From an uncultured Eubacteriales bacterium (GTDB lineage: Bacteria > Bacillota > Clostridia > Oscillospirales > Oscillospiraceae): DNA of 53,451 nucleotides. Location: positions 1 through 53,451 of the forward strand of contig CASFJB010000003.1 of the NCBI GenBank assembly GCA_949294945.1, in the 5' to 3' direction. Shown here piece by piece: positions 10,747 to 35,225 of this stretch (positions are counted from its first letter, which is position 1; the number at the start of each line of letters is the position of its first letter). The notes beneath the pieces are model-generated. The model ran no database searches. It was not told the DNA's origin and saw nothing but the letters and a program-made list of their open reading frames with translations. The position numbers were made by a program, and so were the translations under genes.

Positions 10747-10759
10747 AAGGAGGGGCAGT

Positions 10760-12392: not shown

Positions 12393-12403
12393 GCTTTTAC
12401 ATG

Positions 12404-12441
12404 AAAAATACACATCTCCCCGCCGGGAGATGTGTATTTTA
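12404..12441. terminator. bidirectional intrinsic terminator between convergent genes
   Basis: Perfect 15-bp stem AAATACACATCTCCC / GGGAGATGTGTATTT with loop CGCC. An A-run lies on the left and a T-run on the right. Confidence 0.8.
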
Positions 12442-12445
12442 ATAT

Positions 12446-17081: not shown

Positions 17082-17171
17082 TAAGACATCCTCACGAAAA
17101 CATGTTTTGACAGTTTATTTTAACTCAAAATCTCCCGCATGTAAAGTTCAAGCTGTCTCTTTATGTCCCGC

Positions 17172-17220
17172 ATGATGCAAAGGCTCCAGGGGCCGCCCGT
17201 CCCTAGAGCCTTTGCATCAT
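17172..17220 (-). terminator. hairpin at the end of the folate operon (no clear U-tract)
   Basis: 15-bp stem ATGATGCAAAGGCTC / GAGCCTTTGCATCAT with a 19-nt loop. It overlaps the MTHFS stop codon. Confidence 0.3.
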
Positions 17221-17771
17221 ATCTCTTTTCTTCTGTATACCCGCTCTTCCGTCACCACGGCATCCATGGGTACATCCCAGCTTTGGGCCTCCAGGACCTC
17301 CGCCCGCTGAAACTCGTAGGCCACGGCAACGAACTTGGCCCTGGTGCACCTGGGGAGAAAACGGTCGTAATATCCCCCGCCCATGCCAAGACGGCGGCAG
17401 CCGGCGTCAAAGGCGGTGCAGGGGCAGAGCACCAGGTCTATCTCCTCCGGGGCGATCTCCCGGGAGAGCTCCCGTACAGGCTCCGGTATGCCGAAGGCCC
17501 CTTTCTTCCAGGCCCCCTCCCCCTCCGGCAGCAGGGCGCACATCTCTCCCGCTCCGGTACAAAGAGGGTAGGCAAAGACCTTCCCCCGGAGCAGCTCCAG
17601 GCTCACCTCTCCCTGAACCGCCCTGTATATCATCACGGTCCGGGCCTGCCTGTATTCCGGCAGCTCCTCCACATTCTTTACGATACTCCGGGACAGCTTC
17701 TCCACAGTGTCCCGGTCCAGAGCCCTTCTGGCCCGGCGCATCTCCCGGCGAATGGTATCTGCATCCCTCAT
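17217..17771 (-). CDS. 5-formyltetrahydrofolate cyclo-ligase (MTHFS)
   Basis: 184 aa from MRDADTIRREMRRARRAL, with a GMGGGYYDR motif near the C-terminus. The ATG at 17771 overlaps the folD stop (ATGA). The 367-aa track ORF is an out-of-frame extension through folD. Confidence 0.85.
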   Translation of the reverse strand: MRDADTIRREMRRARRALDRDTVEKLSRSIVKNVEELPEYRQARTVMIYRAVQGEVSLELLRGKVFAYPLCTGAGEMCALLPEGEGAWKKGAFGIPEPVRELSREIAPEEIDLVLCPCTAFDAGCRRLGMGGGYYDRFLPRCTRAKFVAVAYEFQRAEVLEAQSWDVPMDAVVTEERVYRRKEI

Positions 17772-18649
17772 TTTAGGCTCCTCTCCGCCGCCGCTGCAAC
17801 ATGCTTCATCAGCACCCCAGAGGTGACCCGGCCCACTCCTCCCGGCACGGGGCTTATTGCCTCCACGGTCTTTTCCACTTCCCGGAATACCGTATCTCCC
17901 ACGAAGCCTCCCAGGCTTCCGTCGGCGTTTTTCAGCTCCGGCAGGAAGTTCATGGATACATCCAGCACCGTCTGCCCCGGCCGCACCATATCTCCGGTGA
18001 CAAGTCCCGGCCTGCCGGCGGCACAGATTATGATGTCCGCCTGGCGGCAGATGTCCCCCAGGCCTTCCGTGCGGCTGTGGCAGAGCGTTACGGTGGCATC
18101 TCTGGCCGTCAGAAGCATGGCCAGCGGCCTGCCCACCACCAGGCTTCTGCCTATCACTGCCGCTCTTTTGCCCCGGCATTCTATGCCGTAGTGATCCAAC
18201 ATCTCCAGACAGGCCTGGGCGGTACAGGGCGGGAAGCCCGCCCCCTCTCCGGTATATATTGTAGCAGCGGAGGCGGCGGTGCAGCCGTCCACGTCCTTTT
18301 CCGGGGCAAGGGCCTTGCATATTTCCCTCTGCTCCGCCGCAAGCTGCCCCGGCAAAGGCCGGAAAATAAGGCAGCCGTGTACGGTCCTGTCGGCGCTGAG
18401 CTCATTCAGCAGCTTTTTAAGCTCTTCCGGCGACGCCGTCTCAGGCAGCAAGCGCAGTCCTGCCTCTATCCCGCTGTGCCGGGCCTGGCGAAGGATGCTC
18501 TTTTCATAGGCAAGGTCCTCCTCCCGCTCTCCGCAGCGGACCAGGACAAGTTTCGGTACGATGCCCTGTTCCCTGAGCAGGGCGCTGCGCCCGGATATCT
18601 CTTTCTCCAGAGCTTCGGCCACCTCTTTGCCGGATAAAAGCTTTGCCAT
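17768..18649 (-). CDS. folD: bifunctional methylene-THF dehydrogenase / methenyl-THF cyclohydrolase
   Basis: MAKLLSGKEVAEAL start at 18649 with a GAGGAGGTAA RBS, plus GRSLVVGRPLAMLL and PGGVG motifs. Confidence 0.93.
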   Translation of the reverse strand: MAKLLSGKEVAEALEKEISGRSALLREQGIVPKLVLVRCGEREEDLAYEKSILRQARHSGIEAGLRLLPETASPEELKKLLNELSADRTVHGCLIFRPLPGQLAAEQREICKALAPEKDVDGCTAASAATIYTGEGAGFPPCTAQACLEMLDHYGIECRGKRAAVIGRSLVVGRPLAMLLTARDATVTLCHSRTEGLGDICRQADIIICAAGRPGLVTGDMVRPGQTVLDVSMNFLPELKNADGSLGGFVGDTVFREVEKTVEAISPVPGGVGRVTSGVLMKHVAAAAERSLK

Positions 18650-18650
18650 T

Positions 18651-19280
18651 TTACCTCCTCTGCTCCATGAGAGCGGCCATGACTTTGCCGTATATCTCCC
18701 CATGGAGCTCTTCGCAGCTCTTCTGTATCTCCAGACAGGCGGCATTCAGTCTCTCGGCCTCCGCTCTGTCCTTCAGACTTTTGGTGTTGATGTATACGTT
18801 AAGTGCCGCAGAATCTACGGCGGCCTTTAGCATGGCGGCGGCGCAGCCGGCGTCGGACACCGCCATCACCGAGCCCTTTTCCGCCATAAGCTTTGTCAGT
18901 TCCATGGCCCGGAGCGCAAGTTCCATTATCTTCTTCGGCGCGGTACAGGCGGTCAGAGTCGCCCATTCCAGCTTCTCCTCCCGGCCCGGCTCATCCTTGG
19001 GCAGTCTGTAGGTTTGACTGAGGGGTATGAAGCCCTCAGCATCCTCCATCACCGTATCCAGCAGCATTTCCCGGAGCTCTTCCAGTTCCGCCGCCGCTGC
19101 CCTTATCTCTTCCTCCACCCCGGCATAGCGCTTTTTGCCCACTGTCAGAGCGGCCACCATTTCCCCAAGGGCCGTCCCCAGGGCTCCGGCAAGAGCCGCC
19201 GCTCCGCCGCCGCCGGGAGTCGGGCTTTCGGAGGCCAGGAGGGCAGTAAAGTCCCGGCAGCTTTCCTTTGTGTAGTCCAT
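18651..19280 (-). CDS. cyclodeaminase/cyclohydrolase family protein (FTCD_C / FchA-like)
   Basis: 209 aa, all-helical, with N-terminal LASESPTPGGGGAAALAGALGTALGEMV, which is typical of the FTCD C-terminal domain family. Confidence 0.8.
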   Translation of the reverse strand: MDYTKESCRDFTALLASESPTPGGGGAAALAGALGTALGEMVAALTVGKKRYAGVEEEIRAAAAELEELREMLLDTVMEDAEGFIPLSQTYRLPKDEPGREEKLEWATLTACTAPKKIMELALRAMELTKLMAEKGSVMAVSDAGCAAAMLKAAVDSAALNVYINTKSLKDRAEAERLNAACLEIQKSCEELHGEIYGKVMAALMEQRR

Positions 19281-19292
19281 TCCCGCTCCCTC

Positions 19293-20504
19293 TCAGATTA
19301 TCAGTCCGTATCTGCTGCAGAGGGGCAGCAGCTCCTCTTCCCGAAGGCTTCCTTCGTACATTGCCCGGCCCTGATACAGTCTCAGGGCCTGCTCAAGGAG
19401 CTTGGCATCATCGCAGCAAAGGCAGAGGGGCTTTGAGATCATGAACTGGCAGTCGGCAAAGGCGGAGAGCTCCTCCTTTGACTTGATGGCTATGGCCACC
19501 ATTTCCCCTTCCGTTTCCTCCATAAGCTCCTCTTCCAGCTCCTCGTTGCAGCTGAGTATCCTGCCGTGTTCCGCAGAGGGCTCCAGAAAAAAGACCTCCT
19601 TCTCCGTGGCGCAGGGCAGCTTGTCAGCGTGCAAAGGCGCCGGGGACAGCATCTCCAGCGAGGCGCTGCCCTTGGCAATAGCCTCCACGTGGCCTGCCTC
19701 CGTGCCGCAGCAGCCGCCGAAGATGCAGACCCCCGCCCGGGCCATTCCGGGAATGCAGGCGGAGAACTCCTCCGGCGGGCAGTTGTACACCGTCTCTCCC
19801 TCCACCGTCTCCGGCATGCCGGCGTTGGGCTTTGCCAGCAGCGGTATGCAGGCTATTTCCCTCAGGCGCTCCAGCTGGACCAGCATCTCCTCCGGCCCCA
19901 CGGAACAGTTGAGTCCGAAGGCGTCGGCTCCCATGCCCTGCATTATCTGCAATGCCGCCCTCACATCGCTGCCGGTGAGGGTGCGGCCCTTCTCGTCGCA
20001 GGTGAAGGAGACAAACACCGGCTTTTCGCTGACGCTCTTCACCGCCAGCAGGGCGGCCCTGGCCTCCGCCACCGTCATCATGGTCTCTATGACATAGAGG
20101 TCCACCCCGGCGTTTTCCAAGGCGGCCGCCTGTTCGGTGTATATCTCCACCAGCTCGTCAAAGGATGCCGTGCCCAGGGGATAGAGCATCAGGCCCGTGG
20201 GGGCCAGGTCCCCGGCCACCCAGGCTCTGTCCCCCGCCGCCTTGCGGCTGAGGTTCACCAGGGCCTGGTTATATTCTTCCACCTTGCCGAAAATGCCGTG
20301 CTGCTCCAGCTTCACCCGGTTGGCCCCGAAGGTGGGGGCGTAGATGACCCGGCTGCCCGAGTCCACATAGCTGCGCTGTATCTCCAGTATGGCCTGGGGA
20401 TGGTTCAGCGTCCAGCTCTCGGCGCATTCCTCTCCGGTATAACCCCGCTTCTGCAGCTGGGTCCCGGTAGCCCCGTCCAATATAAGTGGAAAGCTCAGTT
20501 CCAT
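19293..20504 (-). CDS. homocysteine S-methyltransferase-family protein (MetH Hcy-domain-like) with an extra C-terminal ~100 aa
   Basis: ILDGATGTQLQ start and zinc-site GGCCGT. The tail KPLCLCCDDAKLLEQALRLYQGRAMYEG resembles part of a pterin-binding barrel. Confidence 0.8.
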   Translation of the reverse strand: MELSFPLILDGATGTQLQKRGYTGEECAESWTLNHPQAILEIQRSYVDSGSRVIYAPTFGANRVKLEQHGIFGKVEEYNQALVNLSRKAAGDRAWVAGDLAPTGLMLYPLGTASFDELVEIYTEQAAALENAGVDLYVIETMMTVAEARAALLAVKSVSEKPVFVSFTCDEKGRTLTGSDVRAALQIMQGMGADAFGLNCSVGPEEMLVQLERLREIACIPLLAKPNAGMPETVEGETVYNCPPEEFSACIPGMARAGVCIFGGCCGTEAGHVEAIAKGSASLEMLSPAPLHADKLPCATEKEVFFLEPSAEHGRILSCNEELEEELMEETEGEMVAIAIKSKEELSAFADCQFMISKPLCLCCDDAKLLEQALRLYQGRAMYEGSLREEELLPLCSRYGLII

Positions 20505-22045
20505 TCCAGTTCGTCCTCCTTGCTGAATGTCATATGTTCAGGGAAAGCCCGGTTGAAACGGGCATCCCCGGAAAGCTCTATATATCTGCACTTTTCCTGT
20601 ATCCTGTACAGCTCCTCCCGGCTGTCCATATCCAGCAGAGCCATGGCCGCCCCGCCAAGAGCGCTGTTTCCCAGAGCCTCTGCCCTGTCCGCCAGCTCCT
20701 CCGGCAGCATGCCTATGTCCGCCGCAGCCTTCACATCCAGGTGGGAGCCAAAGCCCCCGGCTATATACACCCGGCCAATATCTCCGGAACCTATGCCCAG
20801 CTCCTCCATGAGCACTTCTATCCCGGCGGCCACGGCGGCCTTGGCCAGCTGCAGCTGTCTCACGTCCCCGGCAGTTAGATATACTCTGTCGCTTAGGTAC
20901 AGGCAGCCGTTTCCCCTGTCATCTTCCCTCAGCCAGGGGCTGAGCTCTTCCGGGGCCTCTTCCGGAGGCAGCAGCCAGCCGCCCTCATCTACGGCTCCCA
21001 GCTCCAGCAGCAGGGCCAGCAGGCTGATGAGGCCGGAGCCGCACAGGCCCTTTGCCTCCCCGCCGCCAATGACATCCGTTTCAAAGCCCTTTCCCGTCCA
21101 TCTCACCGCCGTTACGGCCCCGGTCATGCTGGCCATCCCGCAGCTGATCCCGGCCCCCTCAAAGGCCGGGCCTGAGGCTACGGAGCAGGTGACAAAGCCG
21201 GCCCTGCCCCCCAGAGCCATCTCTCCGTTGGTGCCAATGTCCAGGAAAAGGTTCAGCCCTTCTCTGTCCCACAGGCCGGAAGAGAGCAGTCCCGCCATGA
21301 TATCCCCGCCCACATAGGCGGCTGCACAGGGAGCGGCCAAAGCTTTAACGTGTTTTATGTAAACCGGATCTCTCTTGGTGAACAGGCTTACAGGTCTGAA
21401 TGGGGCCACGGCAATACCAGCCGGGGAAAGGCCCATAAAAATGTGCTCCATCACCGTGTTGCCCACCGCGATGAGCTCTTCCAGGCTGTCGTCCTGTCTC
21501 CCTGAGCTGAGCATAAGCTCCCGGACAAGTTCAAAGACCTGGCTCCGTACCCGCTGTTTCAGCAGCTCCAGCCCGTCCTCATGTTCCATGATATACTGGC
21601 AGCGGCTGATGACGTCGGCCCCAAAGGGGCTCTGGCTGTTCCAGGCGCCCAGGCTGCCCAGCTCCAGGCCCTGCTCCAGATCAAAGAGCTTCACCGCCAG
21701 GGTGGTAGTGCCTATATCCACGGCAGCCCCCAGACCGCGGCGCCCGGTCCCGCGCCCGGATTCATGTGTTATGTCAACCTCTCTGCCCTCCCGGCAGATC
21801 TCTCCTGTTCCCCGCTCCGGAAGAAGCACTTCCATGTCCCCATCTATGTTATATCGGCAGGCCAGGACGCTTTCCCTGCCTCTGCCCCGGTCCACAATTA
21901 CCCGGCATTTGCCGCATTTCCCGTTTCCGCCGCAGGGCGCAGGCAGCTCCAGGCCGCCCCGGCGCAGGATTTCCAGAAGATTCTCCCCGTTTTTTGCTTT
22001 AAATTCAAAGTCTCTGTCCCCTTGACGGGCCAAAATCCTTGACAT
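20495..22045 (-). CDS. RACo-like reductive activator of corrinoid proteins (2Fe-2S ferredoxin + ASKHA ATPase, DUF4445 type)
   Basis: N-terminal plant-type ferredoxin CGGNGKCGKCRV. A long ASKHA-like body follows, with DIGTTT and DIGTNGE phosphate motifs. Confidence 0.85.
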   Translation of the reverse strand: MSRILARQGDRDFEFKAKNGENLLEILRRGGLELPAPCGGNGKCGKCRVIVDRGRGRESVLACRYNIDGDMEVLLPERGTGEICREGREVDITHESGRGTGRRGLGAAVDIGTTTLAVKLFDLEQGLELGSLGAWNSQSPFGADVISRCQYIMEHEDGLELLKQRVRSQVFELVRELMLSSGRQDDSLEELIAVGNTVMEHIFMGLSPAGIAVAPFRPVSLFTKRDPVYIKHVKALAAPCAAAYVGGDIMAGLLSSGLWDREGLNLFLDIGTNGEMALGGRAGFVTCSVASGPAFEGAGISCGMASMTGAVTAVRWTGKGFETDVIGGGEAKGLCGSGLISLLALLLELGAVDEGGWLLPPEEAPEELSPWLREDDRGNGCLYLSDRVYLTAGDVRQLQLAKAAVAAGIEVLMEELGIGSGDIGRVYIAGGFGSHLDVKAAADIGMLPEELADRAEALGNSALGGAAMALLDMDSREELYRIQEKCRYIELSGDARFNRAFPEHMTFSKEDELEWN

Positions 22046-22067
22046 ATATTTATCCTTTTCCTATAAT
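22039..22067 (+). promoter_or_regulatory. consensus sigma-A promoter TTGACA-17-TATAAT for the DUF2284/methyltransferase operon
   Basis: TTGACA lies at 22039-22044 and TATAAT at 22062-22067, giving an exact 17-nt spacer. Confidence 0.6.
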
Positions 22068-22070
22068 TAT

Positions 22071-22084
22071 TTAAAGTACTTTAA
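22071..22084. promoter_or_regulatory. 14-bp perfect palindrome TTAAAGTACTTTAA, candidate shared operator
   Basis: It lies immediately downstream of the plus-strand -10. It also lies next to a minus-strand TTGACA-16-TATATC promoter (22116-22111 / 22094-22089). Confidence 0.4.
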
Positions 22085-22140
22085 GTATGATATACAGTAG
22101 CCGGGGCTTTTGTCAAGGAGCATTGTGAAAGGAGCGAGGG

Positions 22141-22677
22141 ATGCCGGATTTTTTTCAGCTGGCCAGGCAAAACGGCTTTGAGCATATCGCTCCCCTTTGC
22201 ATGGAAGCACTGAAGCCTTTGCCTGAGGTGCGGGAAATGTGCGCCTCGGGGCGCTGTCTTAAATACGACCGCTGCTGGAGCTGTCCTCCCGCCTGCGGCA
22301 GCCTGGATGACACGGCCCGGCGCATGGGCCGTTACCGCCGGGGCATCCTGGTCCAGACCGTGGGAGAGCTGGAGGACGAGTTTGACAGCAGGGGCATAGC
22401 TCTGGCCCAGGCCAGGCACAAGTCGGCTTTTTCCAATCTGGCCAGGCAGGCCAGATGCCTGGAGCCGGACTGTCTGCCCCTCACCGCCGGGGCCTGCACC
22501 CTCTGCCATAAGTGCACCTGGCCGGACAGGCCCTGCCGCTTTCCCCAAAAGCGCCTGTCCTCCATGGAGGCCTACGGGCTGCTGGTGAGCGAAGTGTGCC
22601 TGCGCTCCGGGCTGGATTACAACTACGGTCCCGGCACCATTAGTTTCACTTCATGTATTCTGTTTGAAAAGGAGTAA
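22141..22677 (+). CDS. DUF2284-type metal-binding (Cys-rich) protein
   Basis: 178 aa with CASGRCLKYDRCWSCPPACG and CTLCHKCTWPDRPC cysteine clusters. This family recurs next to corrinoid methyltransferase genes. Confidence 0.7.
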   Translation: MPDFFQLARQNGFEHIAPLCMEALKPLPEVREMCASGRCLKYDRCWSCPPACGSLDDTARRMGRYRRGILVQTVGELEDEFDSRGIALAQARHKSAFSNLARQARCLEPDCLPLTAGACTLCHKCTWPDRPCRFPQKRLSSMEAYGLLVSEVCLRSGLDYNYGPGTISFTSCILFEKE

Positions 22678-22684
22678 AAGCGAG

Positions 22685-24400
22685 ATGCAGAGCCCTAAGG
22701 AAATTTTTCTGGAATTACTCAAGCCTGACGGCAGGCCGGAGCGGCAGCTGAAGCAATATGAGGCGCTGCATGTGGTGCTGAACGATCCTGTGAACGGCTA
22801 TCTCCGGGCCGGCCGGGGAAAGGGGCACACCAGTATCGACCGCTGGGGCACCACAATAATGTGGCCGGAGGATGCTCCCGGGCCCATGCCCCACATCACG
22901 CCGGAGACCAAGGTCTGCCCGGATATCACCCGCTGGCGGGAATATGTCCATGCCCCGGATCTGGAGTCCAACTGCACCCAGGGCTGGGAGGACTGTGCCG
23001 CCGCTGCCAGGGCAGCTGCTGGAGATGGCAAGATAATTGCCGGTTTCATGGGCACCGGCATTTTTGAGCAGTGCCATTTTCTCATGGGTTTCGAGGACAC
23101 TCTCACCAATCTTTACGAGCATCCGGAGGAAATGCATCAGCTTATTGATTATATTACGGACTACAGGCTACAATTCGTCAAATTACTTATTGACGGACTG
23201 GCCCCGGATATGATATTCTCCCATGACGACTGGGGCGCAAAGGATTCGCTGTTTATGAAGCCGGAAATGTGGCGGGAATTTTTCAAGGAACCCTACCGGC
23301 GTTTTTACGGCTACATCCGCTCCCGGGGCGTCATAGCCCTGCACCATGCCGACTCCTACCTGGCTCCCATTGTGGAGGACATGGCGGAGATAGGCATACA
23401 GATCTGGCAGGGTGTACTGCCGGATAACGATATCCCCGCTCTTCAGCGCCGGCTGAAGGGGCGCATGGTGCTCATGGGCGGCATAGGCGCCGCCATCGAC
23501 CGTCAGGACGCCTCCGAAGAGGAGATACGCAGCTATGTGGGCGCTGCTCTCAAAGCCTGCTGCCCCGGCGGCCATTTTATCCCCAGCATCACCTACGGTC
23601 TTGCCGGGACCGTATTCCCCCATGTAGACCCCATCATCGATGATGAGATAGACAAATACAACTCGGTGCTCCATATGCCTGCCCTTGACCTTCCCCCGGC
23701 GCCCCGGCGCGTCACGGCTCCTAAGGCCCATGTACAGGCCAAAGCCCAGGAGGATAAGCTTGACGGACTGCTCTCCCAGCTGTCCCAAGCCCTTTGCCGT
23801 GGGCAGAGGAAAAAGGTCCTGGAGCTCTGCCGTCAGGGTCTGGATCAGGGCTTTGAGGCCAGAGAGCTGCTGGAGCAAGGGCTTGTGGCCGGTATGACCA
23901 GGCTTGGCGACGACTTTACCGCAGGCCGGGCCTTTGTGCCGGAGATGCTTATGGCAGCCCGCTGCATGGCGGCGGCCACTGAGCTTTTAAAGCCTGGTCT
24001 TGTAAGCGGCGAAGAGAAAGCCGCAGGCCGGGTCGTTCTGGGCACGGTGAAGGGGGACATGCACGATATAGGCAAGAACCTGGTGAAGATAATGATGGAA
24101 GGCTGCGGCCTGGAGGTCATTGATCTGGGCCTGGACGTGAGTCCCGAGGCCTTTGTTGACACCGCTATCGAAAAAAACTGCGGTATTATAGCCTGCTCTT
24201 CCCTGCTTACCACCACCATGGCGGAAATGCGCCGGGTCGTAAACCTGGCGGTGGAAAAAGGTATCAGGGATAAAATAAAAATCATGGTTGGGGGCGCTCC
24301 CATCACTGAGAGCTTCTGCCAGGAGATCGGCGCTGACGCCTATACCGCCGACGCAGGTCAGGCGGCCAGGGTGGCCGTAAGTCTCCTGCAGGGCGCCTGA
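22685..24400 (+). CDS. URO-D-family (MtaA/CmuA/O-demethylase MT-I-like) methyltransferase fused to a cobalamin-binding domain
   Basis: The N-terminal ~340 aa are URO-D-like. The C-terminal ~215 aa carry a B12-binding cap plus a Rossmann domain with DMHDIGKN (DxHxxG), SSLLTTT and MVGGAP. The ATG at 22685 is preceded by AAAAGGAG. Confidence 0.85.
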   Translation: MQSPKEIFLELLKPDGRPERQLKQYEALHVVLNDPVNGYLRAGRGKGHTSIDRWGTTIMWPEDAPGPMPHITPETKVCPDITRWREYVHAPDLESNCTQGWEDCAAAARAAAGDGKIIAGFMGTGIFEQCHFLMGFEDTLTNLYEHPEEMHQLIDYITDYRLQFVKLLIDGLAPDMIFSHDDWGAKDSLFMKPEMWREFFKEPYRRFYGYIRSRGVIALHHADSYLAPIVEDMAEIGIQIWQGVLPDNDIPALQRRLKGRMVLMGGIGAAIDRQDASEEEIRSYVGAALKACCPGGHFIPSITYGLAGTVFPHVDPIIDDEIDKYNSVLHMPALDLPPAPRRVTAPKAHVQAKAQEDKLDGLLSQLSQALCRGQRKKVLELCRQGLDQGFEARELLEQGLVAGMTRLGDDFTAGRAFVPEMLMAARCMAAATELLKPGLVSGEEKAAGRVVLGTVKGDMHDIGKNLVKIMMEGCGLEVIDLGLDVSPEAFVDTAIEKNCGIIACSSLLTTTMAEMRRVVNLAVEKGIRDKIKIMVGGAPITESFCQEIGADAYTADAGQAARVAVSLLQGA

Positions 24401-24527
24401 ACCCCCGCACCGGCTGAGGCCTGCCATGTCACATCCAATGGAGGCCGTCCGCCGGGATATCTTCTCCGGCTTGCCGGGGAAACCGATGGGTAAAAATGCT
24501 TATCGATATTTGAAAGGAAGGTTTGTT

Positions 24528-26612
24528 ATGGCACGGAAAAAAGTTGATTCAGATGTGAAGAAAACCGCCGTGAAAGAGGCGGCAGCACCGGCTGCGGAAA
24601 AAGAAACCAAGGCCCCTGTCAAGGCTGCACCCGCTGAAAAGGCCGCTCCTGTAGAAAAAAAGACCGAGCCTGTTGTGGAGAAGAAAGCCGCTCCCGCTGA
24701 GAAGAAGGCCGAGCCCGTGGTGGAGAAAAAAGCCGCTCCCGCTGAGAAGAAGGCCGAGCCTGCAAAGAAGAAAGCTGCTCCCGCGAAAAAGAAGGCTGAG
24801 CCTGCCGAAAAGAAGGCTGAGCCTGCCGAGAAGAAGGCCGCTCCCGCAAAGAAGAAAGCCGCTCCCGCGAAAAAGAAGGCTGAGCCTGCCGAAAAGAAGG
24901 CTGAGCCTGCCGAGAAGAAGGCCGCTCCCGCAAAGAAGAAAGCCGCTCCTGCAAAGAAAAAGGCTGAACCCGCAGCAGAAGCCGCTCCCGTTGTAGAAGC
25001 TGCTCCCGTCGTTGAGGCCGCTCCCGTCGTTGAGGCCGCTCCCGTCGTTGAGACCACCCCCGTGGTGGAGGCCGCCCCCGTGGTGGAGGCCGCTCCTGTT
25101 GTTGAAGAAACCCCCGTTGTTGAGGAGGCTGCACCTGTGTTGGATATCTCTACTCTGCCCCGCAGAAGCGTGGCTTTCATCGGTTCCGAGTGTCATCCCT
25201 TTGTCAAGACCGGCGGGCTGGGGGATGTTATGTATGCCCTGCCCCGGGAGCTGGTCAAGCTCAACTGCGACGTGCGCGTGATCCTGCCCCGCTACGCCTG
25301 CATACCCAGGAAGTATCAGGACAAGATGGTTTACCGCGGCGAGTTCTACATGGACCTGGGCGGCACCGGTCGCGACTACTATGTAGGCATAATGGAATAC
25401 GTCTGTGACGGCGTTGTCTACGATTTCATCGACAACCAGGAGTTCTTCACCTCCGGCAATCCCTACACCAATCTTGTGGACGATATTCCCAAGTACTGCT
25501 TCTTCAGCAAGGCCGCCCTGGCTGCTCTCAACTACATGAACTGGATACCCGACATCATCCACTGCCACGACTGGCAGGCCGGTCTTGTCCCCGTGTATCT
25601 GCGTACCCTGTTCAAGGATACCCCTGTGGGCCGTGCCCGGTCTATACTTACCATACATAATCTCCGCTTCCAGGGCATCTTCAATATCCCCACCATAAAG
25701 TACTGGTCCGGTCTGCCCGACTCCGTATTCAACATGGGCGCTCTCCAGCAGGACTACGTCAACGCCAATATGCTCAAGGGCGGCCTGGCCTATGCCGACC
25801 GCATCACCACCGTCAGCGGCACCTACGCCTGGGAGATACAGACCGCCGAATACGGCGAGCGTCTGGAGGATCACCTGCGCTACCACAGCGGCAAGCTGAG
25901 AGGCATAGTCAACGGCATAGACTACGAAATGTGGAACCCTGAGACCGACCCGGCCCTGGCAGAGAATTACGGTCTGGCCAATGTGCTCAACCACAAGATG
26001 GAGAACAAGAAGGCCCTCCAGAGAGAGCTGGGCCTGGTGGAGGACGAAGGCAAGTTCGTCATTGGCCTCATCTCCCGTCTCACCAACCAGAAGGGTCTGG
26101 ATCTGGTGAGCACCATCGTGCCCCAGGTGCTGGACGGCAACACCCAGATCGTTGTCCTGGGTACCGGCGACGCCCAGTATGAGGACAGCTTCCGCTATTA
26201 TGAGGCCACCAACAAGGGCACCTTCAGCGCCTGCATCCAGTATGACGAGGCAAGAGCCCACCGCATTTATGCCGGCGCCGACGCTCTGCTGGTCCCCTCC
26301 CGCTTCGAGCCCTGCGGACTTACCCAGCTCAACGCCATGCACTACGGCACCCTGCCCATCGTCCGGGAGACCGGCGGCTTGAAGGACACCGTGCAGCCCT
26401 ACAATGATTTTACCGGCGAGGGCAACGGCTTTACCTTCGACCGCTACGACGCCGGATTGCTGCTGGATGCCATCAACCGGGCCAAGACCGTTTACTTCAC
26501 CAACCGCTATCACTGGGACGAGATAGTCCAGCGGGATATGGCCAAGGACGTGTCCTGGACCAACTCCGCAAGGCAGTACAAGGACCTGTATCTGGAACTG
26601 ACTCAGTGGTGA
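24528..26612 (+). CDS. glgA: glycogen (starch) synthase with a ~210-aa low-complexity N-terminal extension
   Basis: The GT5 core starts at RSVAFIGSECHPFVKTGGLGDV. The start MARKKVD at 24528 is preceded by AGGAAGG. Confidence 0.92.
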   Translation: MARKKVDSDVKKTAVKEAAAPAAEKETKAPVKAAPAEKAAPVEKKTEPVVEKKAAPAEKKAEPVVEKKAAPAEKKAEPAKKKAAPAKKKAEPAEKKAEPAEKKAAPAKKKAAPAKKKAEPAEKKAEPAEKKAAPAKKKAAPAKKKAEPAAEAAPVVEAAPVVEAAPVVEAAPVVETTPVVEAAPVVEAAPVVEETPVVEEAAPVLDISTLPRRSVAFIGSECHPFVKTGGLGDVMYALPRELVKLNCDVRVILPRYACIPRKYQDKMVYRGEFYMDLGGTGRDYYVGIMEYVCDGVVYDFIDNQEFFTSGNPYTNLVDDIPKYCFFSKAALAALNYMNWIPDIIHCHDWQAGLVPVYLRTLFKDTPVGRARSILTIHNLRFQGIFNIPTIKYWSGLPDSVFNMGALQQDYVNANMLKGGLAYADRITTVSGTYAWEIQTAEYGERLEDHLRYHSGKLRGIVNGIDYEMWNPETDPALAENYGLANVLNHKMENKKALQRELGLVEDEGKFVIGLISRLTNQKGLDLVSTIVPQVLDGNTQIVVLGTGDAQYEDSFRYYEATNKGTFSACIQYDEARAHRIYAGADALLVPSRFEPCGLTQLNAMHYGTLPIVRETGGLKDTVQPYNDFTGEGNGFTFDRYDAGLLLDAINRAKTVYFTNRYHWDEIVQRDMAKDVSWTNSARQYKDLYLELTQW
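24782..24949 (+). repeat. perfect 84-bp tandem duplication (2 copies) inside the glgA 5' extension
   Basis: 24782-24865 and 24866-24949 are identical base for base. Each encodes a 28-aa AKKKAEPAEKKAEPAEKKAAPAKKKAAP-type unit. Confidence 0.95.
24981..25124 (+). repeat. eight tandem 18-nt units encoding (A/T/E)(A/T)PVVE
   Basis: GCCGCTCCCGTCGTTGAG-like units translate to AAPVVE x8, with TTPVVE and ETPVVE variants. Confidence 0.9.
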
Positions 26613-26648
26613 TTTACCTCCGCTAAAAACCAATTTAACGTATTTTTT

Positions 26649-26677
26649 AAGTCCGGCAACCAGTGGTTGCCGGACTT
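26649..26677 (+). terminator. stem-loop after glgA (weak U-tract)
   Basis: 13-bp stem AAGTCCGGCAACC / GGTTGCCGGACTT with loop AGT. Only TTAAACTATTT follows it. Confidence 0.4.
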
Positions 26678-26758
26678 AAACTATTTCTTGCTTGCAATGC
26701 AACCGCCGCTTATGCTAATATCTGCACATCAGCAAAGGAAGAGAAAGGCGGTATATAC

Positions 26759-27382
26759 ATGAATCTATCCGAAAGAATACAGGAGCTGAGGAAGGCCAGG
26801 GGCCTGTCTCAGGAGGAGCTGGCGGAGGCCCTGGGCGTATCCCGGCAGGCAGTCTCCAAATGGGAGAGCGGCCAGAGCAGCCCCGACCTGGACAAGATAG
26901 TCCAGCTCAGCGAATATTTCGGCGTCAGCACCGACCATCTGCTGAAAGGGGCGGAGCTGCTTCCGGCAGACACCGAAGGGCTGAACACGGCCTTCATCTT
27001 TAACGCAGTGGCAACGGCCTTTGACCTGCTGTCCATCGTACTGTCCGCTCTTATCTGGTACGAGACTCAAGAGGCCGGAGCCCTGATAGCCGGATTGGTA
27101 TTTCTGATCTTCGGTCTTATGCTCCATGTCATAGGCTCCCGCTGGTCCAAGGGCAGAGACGGGCGAGTCCTCAAGCTCCGGTTCTGGAAGATAAATATCT
27201 GGCCGGTCCTTTTTCTGCCAATGTCCCTGGGCTACAATATCCTGGCCCTGGGCTGGCCTGCCCCCTACCCGCTGATGGCAATGAACCGTCTGGTCTCCTA
27301 TGCTCTCTTCTGGCTGCTGTACCTGGCTTCCGGCATGGCGGTGACTTTGAGCTGCGTCAAAGCGGAGCGGGCCATGAAATAA
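26759..27382 (+). CDS. XRE-family HTH regulator with C-terminal transmembrane segments
   Basis: [42 protein letters not shown] is an HTH_3 domain. About 4 hydrophobic helices follow. Confidence 0.85.
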
Positions 27383-27393
27383 GGCCGCATATG

Positions 27394-27433
27394 AAAATCC
27401 CGCCGCACCTATTTTCGGTGCGGCGGGATTTTT
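27394..27433. terminator. bidirectional intrinsic terminator
   Basis: 16-bp stem AAAATCCCGCCGCACC / GGTGCGGCGGGATTTT with loop TATTTTC, between convergent genes. Confidence 0.85.
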
Positions 27434-27451
27434 ATTCAAAGCGAATGGATA

Positions 27452-28624
27452 TCAGGTTCTGGCCACTCCGCTGTCCTTGGCTGCTTTATATACGGCGGCG
27501 GCCACGGCCTCCCGTACTCTGGGGTCGAAGGCCAGGGGGAGGATGTAATCGGCGGAGAGCTCTTCGTCGCTGACCAGAGAGGCTATGGCCTGGGCGGCAG
27601 CCAGCTTCATCTCTTCGTTTATGTCCCATGCCCTGGCATCCAGAGCGCCCCGGAAGATTCCGGGGAAGGCCAGGACATTGTTCACCTGGTTGGGATAGTC
27701 GCTGCGGCCGGTAGATACCACGGCGGCCCCGGCGGCCTTGGCCTGATCCGGCAGTATCTCCGGCACGGGATTGGCGCAGGCAAAGATTATTGAATCTTTA
27801 TTCATACTTCTCACCATGTCCTGGGTGAGAAGGCCGGGGGCGGAAACACCTATAAACACGTCGGCTCCCTTTATCACCTCCGCCAGGCTCCCCTGCTCCC
27901 GGCCGGGATTGGTCATTGCGGCGATCTCCGCCTTGGCCGGATTAAGTCCCGGGCGGCCGGAATATATGGCGCCGCTCCTGTCGCACATGACAATGTTTTT
28001 GACTCCCGCTCCAGCCAGCAGCTTCACCACGGCAGTACCTGCGGCTCCGGCTCCGGAGGTGACCACCTTGATCTCCTCCAGCTTCCTGCCCGTCAGGCGC
28101 AGGGCGTTTTTCAAAGCTGCCATGACTATGACCGCGGTACCGTGCTGATCATCGTGGAAAACGGGGATATCACAGCGCTGCTTCAGCTTCTCCTCTATCT
28201 CAAAGCAGCGGGGGGCGGAGATATCCTCCAGGTTCACTCCGCCGAAGGAGCCGGCAAGCAAAGCCACGGTATTTACTATATCGTCCACGTCCTTGCTGCG
28301 GATGCAGAGAGGTATGGCGTCCACTCCGCCGAACTCCTTAAAGAGGACGCACTTGCCCTCCATTACCGGCATGCCCGCCTCCGGGCCAATATCCCCAAGG
28401 CCCAGCACGGCGCTGCCGTCGGTTACAACAGCCACGGTATTCCAGCGGCGGGTGAGCTCATAGCTCTTGTCCGGGTCCTTCTGTATCTCCAGGCAGGGCT
28501 GGGCGACGCCGGGAGTATAGGCCAGGCTCAGGGCCTCACGGCTGTCCACCTTTGCCCGGGACACCACTTCTATCTTTCCTCTCAGCTGCCGGTGCAGCTC
28601 CAGAGACTTCTGGGCATAATCCAT
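27452..28624 (-). CDS. NAD(P)-dependent malic enzyme (short form)
   Basis: 390 aa with VVTDGSAVLGLGDIG and a dinucleotide-binding GAGAAG motif. Confidence 0.9.
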   Translation of the reverse strand: MDYAQKSLELHRQLRGKIEVVSRAKVDSREALSLAYTPGVAQPCLEIQKDPDKSYELTRRWNTVAVVTDGSAVLGLGDIGPEAGMPVMEGKCVLFKEFGGVDAIPLCIRSKDVDDIVNTVALLAGSFGGVNLEDISAPRCFEIEEKLKQRCDIPVFHDDQHGTAVIVMAALKNALRLTGRKLEEIKVVTSGAGAAGTAVVKLLAGAGVKNIVMCDRSGAIYSGRPGLNPAKAEIAAMTNPGREQGSLAEVIKGADVFIGVSAPGLLTQDMVRSMNKDSIIFACANPVPEILPDQAKAAGAAVVSTGRSDYPNQVNNVLAFPGIFRGALDARAWDINEEMKLAAAQAIASLVSDEELSADYILPLAFDPRVREAVAAAVYKAAKDSGVART

Positions 28625-28625
28625 A

Positions 28626-29201
28626 TCATTTACCGCCTTTCAAACTTTCAAGATAGGCCTCAGGGCCGCTCTCATATATATTTCCCCCAAGACTGTCTAT
28701 AGCCACGGTGAGAGGCATGTCTTTTATCTCCAGCCGCCGCACCGCCTCACAGCCCAGGTCCTCCCAGCATATCACTTCCGCGGACCTGATGCACTGGCTC
28801 ATCAGCGCCCCCGCTCCGCCCATGGCGGCCAGGTACACCGCGCCGTTTCGCACCATGGACTCTATTACTTCCTTATTGCGCATGCCCTTGCCTATCATAA
28901 GCTTCTGTCCCAGGTCAAGGAGCCTGGGTGAATAGGCGTCCATACGCCCGGAGGTGGTGGGACCGGCAGAGCCGATGGCCCGTCCGGGCGGTTCCGGCGT
29001 TGGCCCCACGTAGTAGACGGCGCTGTCTTTCAGTTCAAAAGGCAGCGGCTCCCCCCGGTCCAGACACTCCACCATCCGCTTGTGGGCAGCGTCCCTGGCG
29101 GTATATATCTCCCCGCTGAGATACACCATGTCCCCGGCCCGGAGCTTAGCCAGCTCCTCCCGGCTCAGGGGTGTTTTAAGGCTATATTCCATAGTGCTCA
29201 T
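28626..29201 (-). CDS. Fe-S hydro-lyase beta subunit (class I fumarate hydratase / tartrate dehydratase beta)
   Basis: 191 aa with a GPTTSGRMD motif. The start ATG overlaps the stop of the upstream GT-C gene (ATGA at 29198-29201). Confidence 0.88.
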   Translation of the reverse strand: MSTMEYSLKTPLSREELAKLRAGDMVYLSGEIYTARDAAHKRMVECLDRGEPLPFELKDSAVYYVGPTPEPPGRAIGSAGPTTSGRMDAYSPRLLDLGQKLMIGKGMRNKEVIESMVRNGAVYLAAMGGAGALMSQCIRSAEVICWEDLGCEAVRRLEIKDMPLTVAIDSLGGNIYESGPEAYLESLKGGK

Positions 29202-30880
29202 TCCTTTCTCTCCAGAACAAAAAATCCCCCATACTGTCTGGCATCAAACAGATCCATATCAAAGCAATCCAGCTCGTCCTCAGCTGCCACATATACCGCA
29301 TCCTCTTCCGGGTCTATCTCAATATCCTCCATAGGCGCAAAAGTATAGCGTTCATCAAAAGGCAGCAGCCCCTCCGGGCAGGTCTTGCCCTGGTAGTACT
29401 CCGCATCCGTCTCGTGATAGAAAAGAGTCAGAATCTCGCTGATGTTTCCCCGTGTATCGTCATGCAGGGAGGCGGTTATATACATCTTTTCCGCATCGTC
29501 GTCCTTTATGGACAGCATGGCATCTCCAAAGTCTTTATAGAAATAGTACTCAAGAGTCTTGGAATATTCCCCAAAATAGCTAAAGCACATCATCACAAAG
29601 GCAAGCATATAAACGGCAGCCAGGCCTGCTCTCAGCGGCACGGAGGCAAAGCTCCTCGCTGTCAGGTATATGCCCACGGCGGCAAAGATGATCTGGGGGT
29701 AAAAAATGATGTTTATCCGGTTTACATTCACCCCTATGGTACATACCCCGCACCACAGCCCGGTGATATAAAACAGGATCAGCAGCGCCGCAGCACTGTT
29801 TTTTCTGAATTGCAGCAAAGTCCAGCCCAGACCCAGCAGCACAAAGGGAATGGAAAATAAGTATATGGTTCCATAGGCGGGCATGCTGTTCCAGGGCTTG
29901 TCCGGCGCCTGGATGAACACCACCAGCAGCAGGCATTTGATATCGTACAGCAGCTGTATAATAAAGCTGTACTTCGGGTCATGGAAGAACAGAATGTCGC
30001 TGGAGCGGCGGCTGTCCGGGAAAAACGGCAGAGTGAAGGGCCCCAGCTCTATGGTCTCAAGCCCAAAGAAGTTTATGACCATTACCGTAATGAAGGGCCA
30101 GGACACCGCCAGCCACACCACCAATGCCAAAAATGCCTCCGGAATGCTGACCTCTTTCTTCACCAGCAAATATATACAGGCCATTACCAGAAACAAGGGC
30201 ATGGTATATATCGCTATTCCGTAGCAGTACATGCACAGGCCGAACATCACCATGCTGACGCTCAGAGTCAGCTTGCGGTGCCTGGCTTTCATGGAGCGGT
30301 TCAAAAAGTATATTCCAAACAGGAAGAAATGGGGATACAAATTGCAGTCCAAAGCCCAGCGGCTCTGCATAAAATGCCAGGGCGCAATACAGCCGAAAGC
30401 AAAAATGAACAATGCCGCTTTCTTGCCGAAGGCATCTCTGGAAAAAAGATACAAAACCGCCAAGCCCAGCAGGCTGACTATCAGTATGGGCAGGCGCGCC
30501 GATACCGGGCTGAAGCCCATGAGCTTTATAAAGGGCACCATCAGGTAGCTGAGCAAAGCGCTCATCTGGCCGTAGCCCCAGGCTGTGAGATGCACCGGCA
30601 GGCTCATGCCGTAGCGATCGGTGCCATGGTCCGCCAGCGCCTTGCCGTCTACCGCAGCCATGGCCCCGTCCTGATAGAAGCCTCCCGGCACCTGGCCGAA
30701 TTTATATACCCGGACAAATACGGCCACAAGGGCAAAAAACACAAATATTGTCCAATACAGCCTGTCGGACATCTCCAGCTCCAAGAGACTTCCGGAATTC
30801 TTGTACAGTCTCTTTGCCGTCATAAGGCAGAGCATGAGCACGGCAAAGGCCAGAACTATACTTATCGCTATCATAAGCAA
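29198..30880 (-). CDS. GT-C fold membrane glycosyltransferase, ArnT/PMT(GT39/GT83)-like; paralog 1 (intact)
   Basis: 560 aa and polytopic. The first loop reads GGFYQDGAMAA, followed by ARLPILIVSLLGLAVLYLFSRDAFGKKAALFIFAFGCIAPWH, which is typical of ArnT/PMT_2 proteins. A soluble C-terminal domain of ~140 aa follows. Confidence 0.7.
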   Translation of the reverse strand: MLMIAISIVLAFAVLMLCLMTAKRLYKNSGSLLELEMSDRLYWTIFVFFALVAVFVRVYKFGQVPGGFYQDGAMAAVDGKALADHGTDRYGMSLPVHLTAWGYGQMSALLSYLMVPFIKLMGFSPVSARLPILIVSLLGLAVLYLFSRDAFGKKAALFIFAFGCIAPWHFMQSRWALDCNLYPHFFLFGIYFLNRSMKARHRKLTLSVSMVMFGLCMYCYGIAIYTMPLFLVMACIYLLVKKEVSIPEAFLALVVWLAVSWPFITVMVINFFGLETIELGPFTLPFFPDSRRSSDILFFHDPKYSFIIQLLYDIKCLLLVVFIQAPDKPWNSMPAYGTIYLFSIPFVLLGLGWTLLQFRKNSAAALLILFYITGLWCGVCTIGVNVNRINIIFYPQIIFAAVGIYLTARSFASVPLRAGLAAVYMLAFVMMCFSYFGEYSKTLEYYFYKDFGDAMLSIKDDDAEKMYITASLHDDTRGNISEILTLFYHETDAEYYQGKTCPEGLLPFDERYTFAPMEDIEIDPEEDAVYVAAEDELDCFDMDLFDARQYGGFFVLERKE

Positions 30881-30937
30881 ACCTCGTTTCTCTTTTCTCT
30901 CTGCATAAGTCCGGTGGTCGCCGGACAGCCGTCTGCT

Positions 30938-32592
30938 TCAGTCCCTGGTCTCCAGCAGATAGTAAGTGCCAAACTGCTCCACATCGTAGAGCTCCAGCTC
31001 AAAACAGCCCAGCTCGTTTTCCGCCGCCACATAGGCGGCATCCTCCTGCGGGTCTATATCTATATCCTCCATATTGGCATAGGTATAGCGCTCCCCATAG
31101 GGCAGCAGCCCCTCCGGGCAGGTCTTGCCCTGATAGTACTCCGAATCTATCTGGTGATAGAACAGCGTCAGGACTTCGCTGACATAGGCGGTGTTCTCCC
31201 CCTGGCTCTTGCCGGTTATATAGAATCTCTCCGCATCGCTGTATTGCAGGGCCGAGACCGCCGTGCCGAAGTCCTTGAAAAAGCAATATTCCATCTGCCC
31301 GGCATAGTATCCAAAGTAAGTACTGCACAGCAGGGCAAAAGCCAGCAGATAGGCGGCAGCCACACCCAGGCGCAGGGGAAAGGCGTCCATGCGGCAGAAC
31401 ACCGTATATATGCCCAGGGCGGTAAAAAGGATTTGTGGGTAGAAGATGATGTTTATGCGGTTGATGTTCACTCCGTTGGTGCATAGGCCGCACCACAGCC
31501 CGGTGATGAAGAAGAACAGCAGCAGCACTGCCCCGTCGTTATTTTTAAGCCGCAGCAGTACATACACAAAGCCCAGCACCGCAAAGGGCATCGAGAACAG
31601 ATATATGCTGCCGAAGGCAGGGATATTGTTCCAGAGCAGGTCGCTCCCCTGAGCAAACACCGCAGTTTGCAGGGATTTAAGATTCTCCCACAGCTGGGAG
31701 AGTATATCATCGGAAAAGAAAAGTATATCGTTGGAACGGACGCTGCCGGAAAAATAGGGCAGAGTGAAAGGGCCTATCTCCACCGTATCCCAGCCGAAGT
31801 AGTTGATGGCCATGGCAAGGATGAAGGGCCAAGACACCGCCAGCCAGACCGCCATGGCCATCAGCGCCTCCCCTATGCTTACTTTTTTCTTCAGCAGCAG
31901 ATAAACGCAGGCAAGCACCAGAAACAGCGGCACACGCCATAGCAGTACATGCACAGGCCGAACATCACCATGCTCAGGCACAGCAGCAGCTTACGGCGCC
32001 CGGCTTTCAGGGAGCGGTTGAGAAAATATACTCCGAAGAGAAAGAAGTGGGGGTACAGATTGCAGTCCAGGGCCCAGCGGCTCTGAAGAATATGCCAGGG
32101 GGCTATGGCCCCAAAGGCAAAAACTATAAGCGCCGCCTTTTTCCCAAAAGCATCCCGGCTGAAGAAGTACAGGGCGGCCAGGCCCAGCAGGCTGACGATC
32201 AGCTGGGGCAGCCGGGCGGACACCGCATTCAGACCCATAAGCTTTATAAAGGGCACCATCAGGTAGCTGAGCAGAGCGCTCATCTGACCGTAGCCCCAGG
32301 CCGTGAGATGCACCGGCAGGCTCATGCCGTAGTGATCCGTGCCGTGTTCCGCCAGGGCCAAAGCATCTATGGCGGCCATAGCCCCGTCCTGGTTGAAGCC
32401 GCCGGGTACAGAGCCAAATTTATACACCCTAACCAGCACTGCCGCCAGGGCAAAAAACAGCAGCAGGGCTTTATACACCCGGTCATTCAGGGATAGCTCC
32501 AGATCGGAATGGGGCCGGGACAGCAGCCTGGCCATGGCCACAGTGGTCAGAAACAGGGACAAGGCATAAAAGATTAGATTTAATGAATCCAT
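30938..32592 (-). pseudogene. GT-C paralog 2, reading frame broken by a 13-nt deletion
   Basis: ORFs 31891-32592 (N-terminal half) and 30938-31981 (C-terminal half) are collinear with paralog 1. They sit in different frames. The sequence at 31931-31934 lacks the TGGTATATATGGA present in paralog 3. Confidence 0.75.
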
Positions 32593-32613
32593 ATTTTTAT
32601 TTACTGATGGCTC

Positions 32614-34288
32614 TTACTTTCTGTCCAGCACATAATAATATGGTCCGAACTGCTGGATATCGTATAGCTCTGTGTTAAAATACTCCAGTTCATGTACAGC
32701 CACAAGATACACTGCATTTTCGTTTTCGTCTATTTCCATATCGCTCAGATATCCATAAACATACCTCTCCTTATATGGAAGTATGTTTTCGGGCTCCGTT
32801 TTACCTAGGCAGTACTCGGCATCTAACTCATGGTAGAACATTGTAAGGACCTCGCTTGTCTGTATTCCGTGAGCTTCCGCTGTTATATATATTTTATCTG
32901 CATCACTGTCTCTTATCTCTGCAAGTGCCTGGCCGTAATATTTGTAAAAATACCGCTCAATTGACTGAGCTTGGGAATTATACGGGTCAAAATAGCAGCG
33001 TGCAAATAACACAAAAGACAAAAGGTATACCACTGCCGGCATAAGTCTAATCAGCCCTTTGGTATTTCTCATGAAAGCCGCTACTCCCAGGCCAAGAAAA
33101 ACTATTTGCGCATAGAAAATAATATTGATTCTGTTGATATTTACCGCATTGGTAATTATTCCGCACCATAGGCCTGTAAGCCACATAAGGAATATGAGGA
33201 CGGCTCCGGTGTTTACTTTCATCTGCTTGATAAGCCATCCCAATCCCAATAAGACAAATGGCAGAGAAAACTTATATATGCTGCCATACATGGGAATATT
33301 GTTCCACGGTACATCATCCCACTGAAGGAAAACCACCGATACTGTTGTCTTAATGTTTTCAAACAACTGCCTGAGTATATCGTCTGAGAAGAAAAGAATG
33401 TCACCAGCTCTGACACTGTCTTTAAAGTTTTGCAAGGTGAAAGGGCCTATCTCCACCGTATCCCAGCCGAAGTAGTTGATGGCCATGACAAGGATGAAGG
33501 GCCAGGACACCGCCAGCCAGACCGCCATGGCCATCAGCGCCTCCCCTATGCTTACTTTTTTCTTCAGCAGCAGATAAACGCAGGCAAGCACCAGAAACAG
33601 CGGCCAGAAACAGCGGCATGGTATATATGGACACGCCATAGCAGTACATGCACAGGCCGAACATCACCATGCTCAGGCACAGCAGAAGCTTACGGTGCCC
33701 GGCTTTCAGTGAACGGTTAAGGAAATAGATTCCGAAAAGGAAAAAGTGTGGGTAGAAGTTTGCCTCCAATGCCCAACGGCTTTGCATTATATGCCAAGGA
33801 GCTATAGCTGCAAAAAACAATATAATCAGTCCGGTTTTTCTGCCAAAAATATCTCTTGAGACTTTATATAGTACAATTAGCGACAGGCAGCTGACCAGCA
33901 GAGTTGGAATTCTTATAGTGACCGACGTCATGGAAAACATCTTTACTTTTGGGGCTATGAAGTAAGACATAAGTACGCTCATCTGAGCAAATTTCCATGC
34001 TTCGAAAAATACCGGATAAGATGTCCCATAAATGTCCGTACCATAATCAGCCAAGGCCTTGGCATTTATGGCGGCCATTGCTTCATCTTCTTTTATTCCG
34101 CAGGGCACCGCTCCAAATTCGTACAGACGAACGGCGAGCCCCAGAGCAACAATAATAAAAAGCAAGATTTTTTCTGCTTTCCTGGGTATAGACCAATGTC
34201 CTTCCTCAGGATTCTTGACTAACTTATGTGCAGTTAATATACAGAGTACGGCAAAAAATACGAACAATACCGGGTTAACCCTCGACAT
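32614..34288 (-). pseudogene. GT-C paralog 3 (AT-rich), reading frame broken by a 13-bp tandem duplication
   Basis: ORFs 33422-34288 and 32614-33639 are collinear with paralog 1. CCAGAAACAGCGG is directly duplicated at 33591-33616. Removing one copy restores ...YTMPLFLVLACVYLLLKKK. Confidence 0.75.
33591..33616 (-). repeat. 13-bp direct tandem duplication causing the paralog 3 frameshift
   Basis: CCAGAAACAGCGG occurs at 33591-33603 and again at 33604-33616. Confidence 0.95.
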
Positions 34289-34382
34289 TTAGCTTTCCAC
34301 CCTTTAGATCAATTGTTATCCACAACCCAATGAGACTGCTGTAATTTAAAATACATTAATATTAAGTATTTTGAGGTTAGGC

Positions 34383-35225
34383 TTAGTCCAAAATACATCC
34401 GGCTCTTCTGGTCACATGGCAGCTTATATTCACCGCCACCGGCAGGCCGGCCACGTGGGTAGGCATGGTCTCGATATTCACTGCCAGGGCCGTGGTGCGG
34501 CCGCCGAAGCCCTGGGGACCTATGCCCAGGGAATTGATCTCCCGGAGCATATCCGCCTCCAGAGCGGCATAGAATTCATCCTGGTTGGGGCGGTCCACAG
34601 GCCGCAGCAGGGCGTGCTTTGCCAGGGCCGCCGCCTTGTCAAAGGTGCCGCCTATGCCCACGCCCACCACTATGGGGGGGCAGGGGTTGGAACCGGCGGC
34701 CTTCACCGTGTCCAGCACGAAGCGCTTCACTCCTTCCACCCCGTCGGCTGGCTTGAGCATGGCAAGGCGGCTCATGTTCTCGCTGCCGAAGCCCTTGGGA
34801 ACAACGGTGAGCTCCAGCCGGTCCCCCGGCACCAGCTCCACCGTTATGGCGGCAGGGGTATTGTCCCCGGTGTTCACCCGGCGCAGAGGGTCGCCCACAA
34901 CGCTTTTGCGCAGGTAGCCCTGCTCATAGCCCCGGCGCACGCCTTCGTTCACCGCGGCATTGAAGTCCCCCTCTATGTGCACATCCTGGCCCAGGCTCGC
35001 AAAGACGCAGGCCATGCCCGTATCCTGGCAGACAGGCAGATCCATATTCCCGGCGGCCTCTATATTCCGGCACAGCACCCCCAGAGTGGCTTTCGCCACC
35101 GGCCATGGCTCCCCTTCCCGGGCGCTGTCCATGGCCCGGACTATGTCCTCCGGCAGCTGCTTATTGGCCCTTATGCAAAGCTCCGCCACTGCGGCGCTGA
35201 TATCCTCGGCTTTCACTGTACGCAT
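34383..35225 (-). CDS. Fe-S hydro-lyase alpha subunit (class I fumarate hydratase / tartrate dehydratase alpha)
   Basis: 280 aa with the LPVCQDTGMA motif and GVGIGGT. Confidence 0.9.
   Translation of the reverse strand: MRTVKAEDISAAVAELCIRANKQLPEDIVRAMDSAREGEPWPVAKATLGVLCRNIEAAGNMDLPVCQDTGMACVFASLGQDVHIEGDFNAAVNEGVRRGYEQGYLRKSVVGDPLRRVNTGDNTPAAITVELVPGDRLELTVVPKGFGSENMSRLAMLKPADGVEGVKRFVLDTVKAAGSNPCPPIVVGVGIGGTFDKAAALAKHALLRPVDRPNQDEFYAALEADMLREINSLGIGPQGFGGRTTALAVNIETMPTHVAGLPVAVNISCHVTRRAGCILD

Follow-up and report, generated by a model that had tools for sequence, protein, structure and literature searches.

Paired 13-nt lesions in a glycosyltransferase array of an Oscillospiraceae MAG are probably assembly errors within a gene-conversion tract

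Introduction

Three paralogous glycosyltransferase genes, here called p1, p2 and p3, follow one another in tandem on the minus strand of contig CASFJB010000003.1, the whole 53,451-nt stretch of which was analysed and is referred to below as the window. As deposited, p1 is open, p2 lacks 13 nt, and p3 carries a 13-nt tandem duplication; both frames are broken, and at the same homologous base. Why should two neighboring genes be disrupted by changes of equal length and opposite sign inside a stretch of sequence that they share? A preliminary description of this DNA, made from the letters of the window, offered misaligned recombination between the copies, a reversible on/off mechanism, or a consensus artefact in a repeat. 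We compared the locus with related scaffolds and with contigs and unitigs from independent sequencing runs, and asked which parts of this picture belong to the organism and which to its assembly.

The glycosyltransferase array

The features of the locus, together with comparable features elsewhere in the same MAG, are collected in Table 1.

Table 1. Features of the glycosyltransferase array and of other contigs of the MAG (positions without a contig prefix are those of the window)
Feature	Position	Strand	Remarks
Fumarate hydratase beta-type subunit gene	28626-29201	-	Downstream flank of the array; ORF; syntenic L021 gene matches Pfam Fumerase_C
p1	29198-30880	-	Intact 560-aa membrane glycosyltransferase (Pfam PMT_2, GT39-like, GT-C type); ORF
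p2	30938-32592	-	Assembled length 1655 nt; broken frame leaves ORFs of 233 and 347 aa
Patch in p2	31764-32010	-	Native donor sequence; equals L021 gene B except for a 13-nt gap; GC 57%
p2 13-nt 'deletion' junction	31931-31933	-	ATGGTATATATGG (plus strand) absent; probable assembly error
p3	32614-34288	-	Assembled length 1675 nt; broken frame leaves ORFs of 288 and 341 aa
Patch in p3	33437-33709	-	Conversion recipient; 4 substitutions relative to p2; GC 56%
p3 13-nt tandem 'duplication'	33591-33616	-	CCAGAAACAGCGG twice (plus strand); probable assembly error
Fumarate hydratase alpha-type subunit gene	34383-35225	-	Upstream flank of the array; ORF; syntenic genes in L020 and L021 match Pfam Fumerase
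1-N scaffold gap	C57:11631		Flanks overlap by 17 nt
55-nt duplication	C165:1428		Skipped by X1 contigs at single-copy depth (joint 328 to 384; 55 letters fit either side)
52-nt duplication	C184:3626		Absent from X1 contigs
40-nt duplication	C187:429		Perfect, out of frame, shortens the ORF (scan)

GT39/PMT_2 proteins are GT-C fold glycosyltransferases of the ArnT/PMT-like kind, of which YkcB is a Firmicutes example. The array proteins resemble this family in their length of about 555 aa, in Pfam PMT_2 matches above the cutoff of 26.1 bits (31.4 for p1, 32.6 for the N-terminal part of p2 and 40.3 for the N-terminal part of p3), and in the public annotation of their relatives, which are named 'glycosyltransferase family 39 protein' (Oscillospiraceae, Candidatus Limivicinus). 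They differ from it in that an NCBIfam search of the p1-p3 family matched no model and a PDB sequence search found no relative. Enzymes of this class have an acidic catalytic motif in the first extracytoplasmic loop and cross the membrane several times; by eye, QDGAM in p1 and p2 and EDEAM in p3 lie after the first hydrophobic stretch, as candidates for such a motif. The whole array is wedged between the genes for the alpha- and beta-type subunits of fumarate hydratase (28626-35225), an order that is kept in L020 and L021.

These two sequences, with L022, supply the closest comparisons. L020 is a syntenic Logan contig of a relative, with flanking DNA 88-89% identical to that of the window. L021 and L022, two scaffolds from ENA, match the window at about 99% identity and hold three open genes of 555, 555 and 558 aa. 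The ortholog of p2, P0006, is an intact protein of 555 aa; at the nucleotide level, L021 gene B is 99.1% identical to p2 and the L021 gene at 6984-8660 is 99.6% identical to p1.

The patch shared by p2 and p3

How alike are p2 and p3 around the lesions? Sliding identity between the two genes is 0.97-1.00 within the patch and about 0.45-0.68 in its flanks. Exactly four substitutions (31997/33696, 31987/33686, 31832/33505 and 31815/33488) and one 26-nt indel separate the two copies, close to the roughly four substitutions counted in the preliminary description. Its further remark, that the patch sits between diverged flanks, is borne out by a sharp step in identity: with a background of 62%, the binomial chance of at least 243 matches in 247 positions is ~1e-44. 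Base composition follows the same outline. The patch has a GC content of ~56-57%, as does p2 (~55-57%) and the window as a whole (57%), compared with 41% for p3 outside the patch.

Judged by sequence comparison, the shared patch is a genuine gene-conversion tract of ~250 nt that passed from p2 to p3, as the preliminary description had proposed. The run that matches the window most closely, X1, contains unitigs with 0 differences that run from p3-unique sequence into the patch at either edge (32244-33466 and 33656-34020), and it holds the middle of the patch at about double the single-copy depth (15.1 and 16.9 versus ~7). In L020, the p3 ortholog P0002 is an intact protein of 553 aa whose gene carries the same patch. 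It is scarcely conceivable that the patch is instead a chimera in which p2 sequence was mis-threaded into p3 during assembly. Local errors are indeed demonstrable in this MAG, but such a chimera would have to be reconciled with joins to p3-unique sequence on both sides and a double-depth middle in X1, and with the presence of the patch inside an intact p3 in an independently assembled relative.

The direction of transfer is indicated by L021. Its p2 ortholog, gene B, matches the patch base for base apart from the 13-nt gap of the window, and its slot-3 gene lacks the patch, with 60-70% identity over that stretch. Because the tract is present in the p2 of L021 and missing from the slot-3 gene, and because the GC content of the patch matches p2 and not p3, p2 is the donor and p3 the recipient. 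The jump in identity from ~60% to ~98%, the donor state kept in a strain whose slot-3 gene is without the tract, and the compositional island in the recipient (56% versus 41% GC) are all as in interparalog, or ectopic, gene conversion. Compared with ordinary cases the p2/p3 tract has nothing unusual about it; it is short, ~250 nt.

At the centre of the converted tract lies the transmembrane core that is most conserved in the family. Within the tract, the core ATAGCAGTACATGCACAGGCCGAACATCACCAT, which encodes MVMFGLCMYCYG, occurs at 31940-31986, 33639-33685 and 30222-30268, and has a summed depth of ~190x in run X2. This depth implies that many related genes and strains of the community share a core conserved at the nucleotide level, and the core is likely an anchor for recombination. 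Two pairs of blocks in p1 and p2 (30511-30637 with 32229-32355, and 29352-29412 with 31092-31152) are also ~90% identical in a background of 69%. These look like older conversion tracts.

The two lesions as deposited

Set against p1 and the intact orthologs, p2 is without CCATATATACCAT (coding strand) after 31932, and p3 has CCAGAAACAGCGG at 33591-33603 and again at 33604-33616. Both the 13-nt loss and the adjoining 13-bp tandem duplication had been recognized beforehand, and the comparison confirms each of them as a departure of the deposited sequence from its relatives. On the coding strand the unit doubled in p3 is GCCGCTGTTTCTG, the 13 nt next to those that p2 lost. The assembled deletion junction reads ...CAGCGGCACACGCC... 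and the assembled duplication junction reads ...CAGCGGCCAGAAACAGCGGCATGG..., also given as ...CAGCGGCCAGAAAC.... One homologous base, on the plus strand the C after CAGCGG, can serve as the site of both lesions; from there on p3 jumps back by 13 nt and p2 skips 13 nt forward. Microhomology at the lesion breakpoints amounts to 1 nt, and the intact sequence holds a single copy of each 13-mer.

The lesion junctions in independent data

Are these junctions present in data other than the MAG? The evidence from sequencing runs consists of Logan contigs and unitigs, which drop rare variants and serve as a proxy for raw reads. The runs that contain sequence of the MAG are mostly chicken-gut or other gut metagenomes. 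Run X1, which may not be the source run of the MAG, holds the same clone as the window: over 9001-29000, pieces of 1094, 1038, 5058, 1442, 1121 and 1186 nt show 0 differences, and 0 differences are likewise found in all p2-unique and p3-unique X1 pieces. X2, a run of the same study as X1, has many SNPs relative to the window.

At 90% likeness, no X1 contig spans the p2 junction (31935-31939), where depth is zero, and none spans the p3 junction (33606-33635). An X1 contig with either lesion would be a perfect match and would therefore have aligned at this threshold. The intact unitig is excluded at 90% owing to the 13-nt gap, which mimics a hole in coverage, and is recovered at 80%. At this lower threshold a 77-nt unitig with a depth of 16.9 lies on 33579-33668 without the 13-nt repeat and with 0 other differences. 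It is overlapped by 30 nt by a 103-nt unitig with a depth of 15.1, whose terminal 3-4 letters fit neither lesion form. The 47-nt core common to p1, p2 and p3 has a depth of 25.3 in X1. Since the intact form stands at ~2x single-copy depth in X1, it accounts for both the p2 and the p3 copies.

The intact junction is also found, with 0-2 mismatches, in X2 (11.9x), X8, X11 and X16, and contigs of X3 (61x) and X4 run from 31917 into the sequence from 33604 on, which is the form of an intact p2. Sampled 31-mers across the lesion junctions (four for the deletion and two for the duplication) are absent from every indexed run, although other parts of the locus are present in 20 runs. A scan of metagenome and genome contigs with the pattern CACCAGAAACAGCGGN{0,30}CACGCCATAGCAGTACATGC, which covers all three forms, returned no match and is uninformative, as the locus's own record and near records may be excluded from it.

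The preliminary description had reasoned that uniform support of the reads for intact frames would indicate an error of assembly. As far as independent assemblies show, the support is of this kind: the intact junction is present in X1 at double depth with no lesion beside it, and p2 and p3 are intact in conspecific and related sequences. All three genes of the array are most likely intact in the organism.

Origin of the lesions

Of the explanations at hand, the evidence favors an assembly or consensus artefact within a repeat, which the preliminary description had listed last: the double-depth intact junction of X1 and the intact related contigs speak for it. Both genes are intact in independent data from the same strain, and the same MAG has other tandem duplications that lack support; for these reasons we read the p2 deletion and the p3 duplication as, with high probability, local errors of MAG building and not features of the organism. 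What if they were real, two independent and private 13-nt indels by which p2 and p3 were lost, through decay or selection for loss, with p1 alone left functional? The junctions do stand in the deposited contig, an assembler that uses only read k-mers would need them in the reads, and the array differs between strains, slot 3 being replaced or missing elsewhere, so that loss of function would be tolerated. Nevertheless, the clone-identical X1 is intact at both copies, at double depth and with no lesion junction, and it also lacks at least two further gene-breaking duplications of the MAG; neither lesion appears in any other run or contig; and two indels of equal size at one base of two paralogs, with no accompanying SNPs, are themselves very improbable. 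We therefore regard real inactivation as improbable.

The equal and opposite changes at one shared breakpoint, inside a patch that recombines, gave the ideas of a site-specific reversible switch and of misaligned recombination between copies their appeal; a hotspot would then generate -13, intact and +13 forms in a mixed population. In five runs (X1, X2, X8, X11 and X16), however, unitigs pass unbranched through the intact junction, even if Logan contigs can hide minority alleles. The site has no pre-existing repeat, just the 1-nt microhomology, and no tract to slip, and 13 nt is not a multiple of 3. Nor can the lost and gained 13-mers be reciprocal products of one exchange, since they are different segments. 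The missing repeat tract, the unbranched unitigs and the difference between the two 13-mers thus speak against both proposals, and together we give them a very small chance of being right. Much the same slight chance attaches to a variant in which the -13 and +13 forms are minority products of a fixed breakpoint (for example, through staggered repair, by 13 nt, of a break at a specific site) and the assembler of the MAG picked the minority paths. Were such minority alleles true, they would act as a switch that turns p2 and p3 off and leaves p1 on.

At first reading, frame-shifting length changes in paralogs recall the slipped-strand phase variation of surface glycosyltransferases. The p2/p3 site differs from such systems in having no repeat tract. 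It also differs in showing no mixed alleles in X1, X2, X8, X11 and X16, where a minority below the threshold of contig cleaning would escape, and the lesions are in no other data set. Two further candidates were set aside. Reciprocal unequal exchange is ruled out, as the 13-mer lost and the 13-mer duplicated are neighboring but distinct segments. An excision footprint of a transposon with a 13-nt target duplication would call for an element or a second example, neither of which was found, and the intact form in X1 speaks against it.

Other errors in the same MAG

The reading of the lesions as assembly errors leads to the rest of the MAG, which comprises 228 contigs with an N50 of 13.3 kb and 47 Ns and is 85% complete. 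Scanning the entire MAG for tandem duplications with identical copies returned in-frame protein repeats and out-of-frame units of 13, 40, 52 and 55 nt. For each of the out-of-frame units, removal of one copy gives a longer ORF. All three of the out-of-frame duplications that were tested, the 13-nt unit of p3 included, are absent from X1, a tally that covers duplications only. The scaffold gaps of the MAG are 1-32 Ns long. Separately, an X1 contig with a depth of 19 skips 324 nt of the window at 25577-25902, where the short side has 24 letters. This could be variation in repeat number or a local assembly difference in a repetitive coding region.

Known classes of MAG error include consensus without read support, sequence duplicated where the flanks of a join overlap, and wrong repeat numbers (Chen et al. 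2020, Genome Res, PMC7111523). The p2 and p3 lesions resemble these errors in lacking support in independent read-derived data, in their location at a repeat, and in falsely breaking genes; duplication of sequence at joins with overlapping flanks is a further point of likeness. They differ in that the joins in p2 and p3 carry no Ns, and in that one copy has lost 13 nt and its sister copy has gained 13 nt at the same homologous base.

How might such a pair of errors arise? The exact assembler step behind them is one that we infer. If intact, the two near-identical patches would form an exact repeat of 167 nt between discriminating SNPs, and the assembly path through each copy may have been interrupted inside this repeat. 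Rejoining with a mis-set overlap would then produce the duplication in p3, where the overlap would be 13 nt too little, and the deletion in p2, where it would be 13 nt too much. New junction k-mers cannot arise in a pure de Bruijn assembler, so the reading as an artefact needs a step of scaffolding, gap closing or path joining. The shared left breakpoint is 99 nt past the nearest SNP that discriminates p2 from p3, which would fit a k or a read length of 100; as a clue to an assembler parameter, this spacing is only a pointer. The right-hand breakpoints fit no single k-mer size or read length.

Significance and the third slot of the array

What follows for the annotation of this MAG? Two surface glycosyltransferases that seem to be pseudogenized are probably intact, so that annotations and counts for pangenomes or pseudogenes would be wrong here. 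The same annotation error would extend to at least two other genes of the MAG that are broken by unsupported tandem duplications. The main value of the locus is thus one of caution, and what remains as real biology is modest and follows a known pattern. By way of a strain-variable GT39-like array, with short conversion tracts and swapping of its third gene, a chicken-gut Oscillospiraceae bacterium could plausibly diversify the glycans of its cell surface.

The third gene itself, p3, is an AT-rich, strain-variable, swapped cassette. The slot that it fills in the window (32671-34388) is occupied in L021 (3415-5165) by a different GT39 paralog, 60% identical to p3. Runs X3 and X4 lack p3 and have other sequence after p2.
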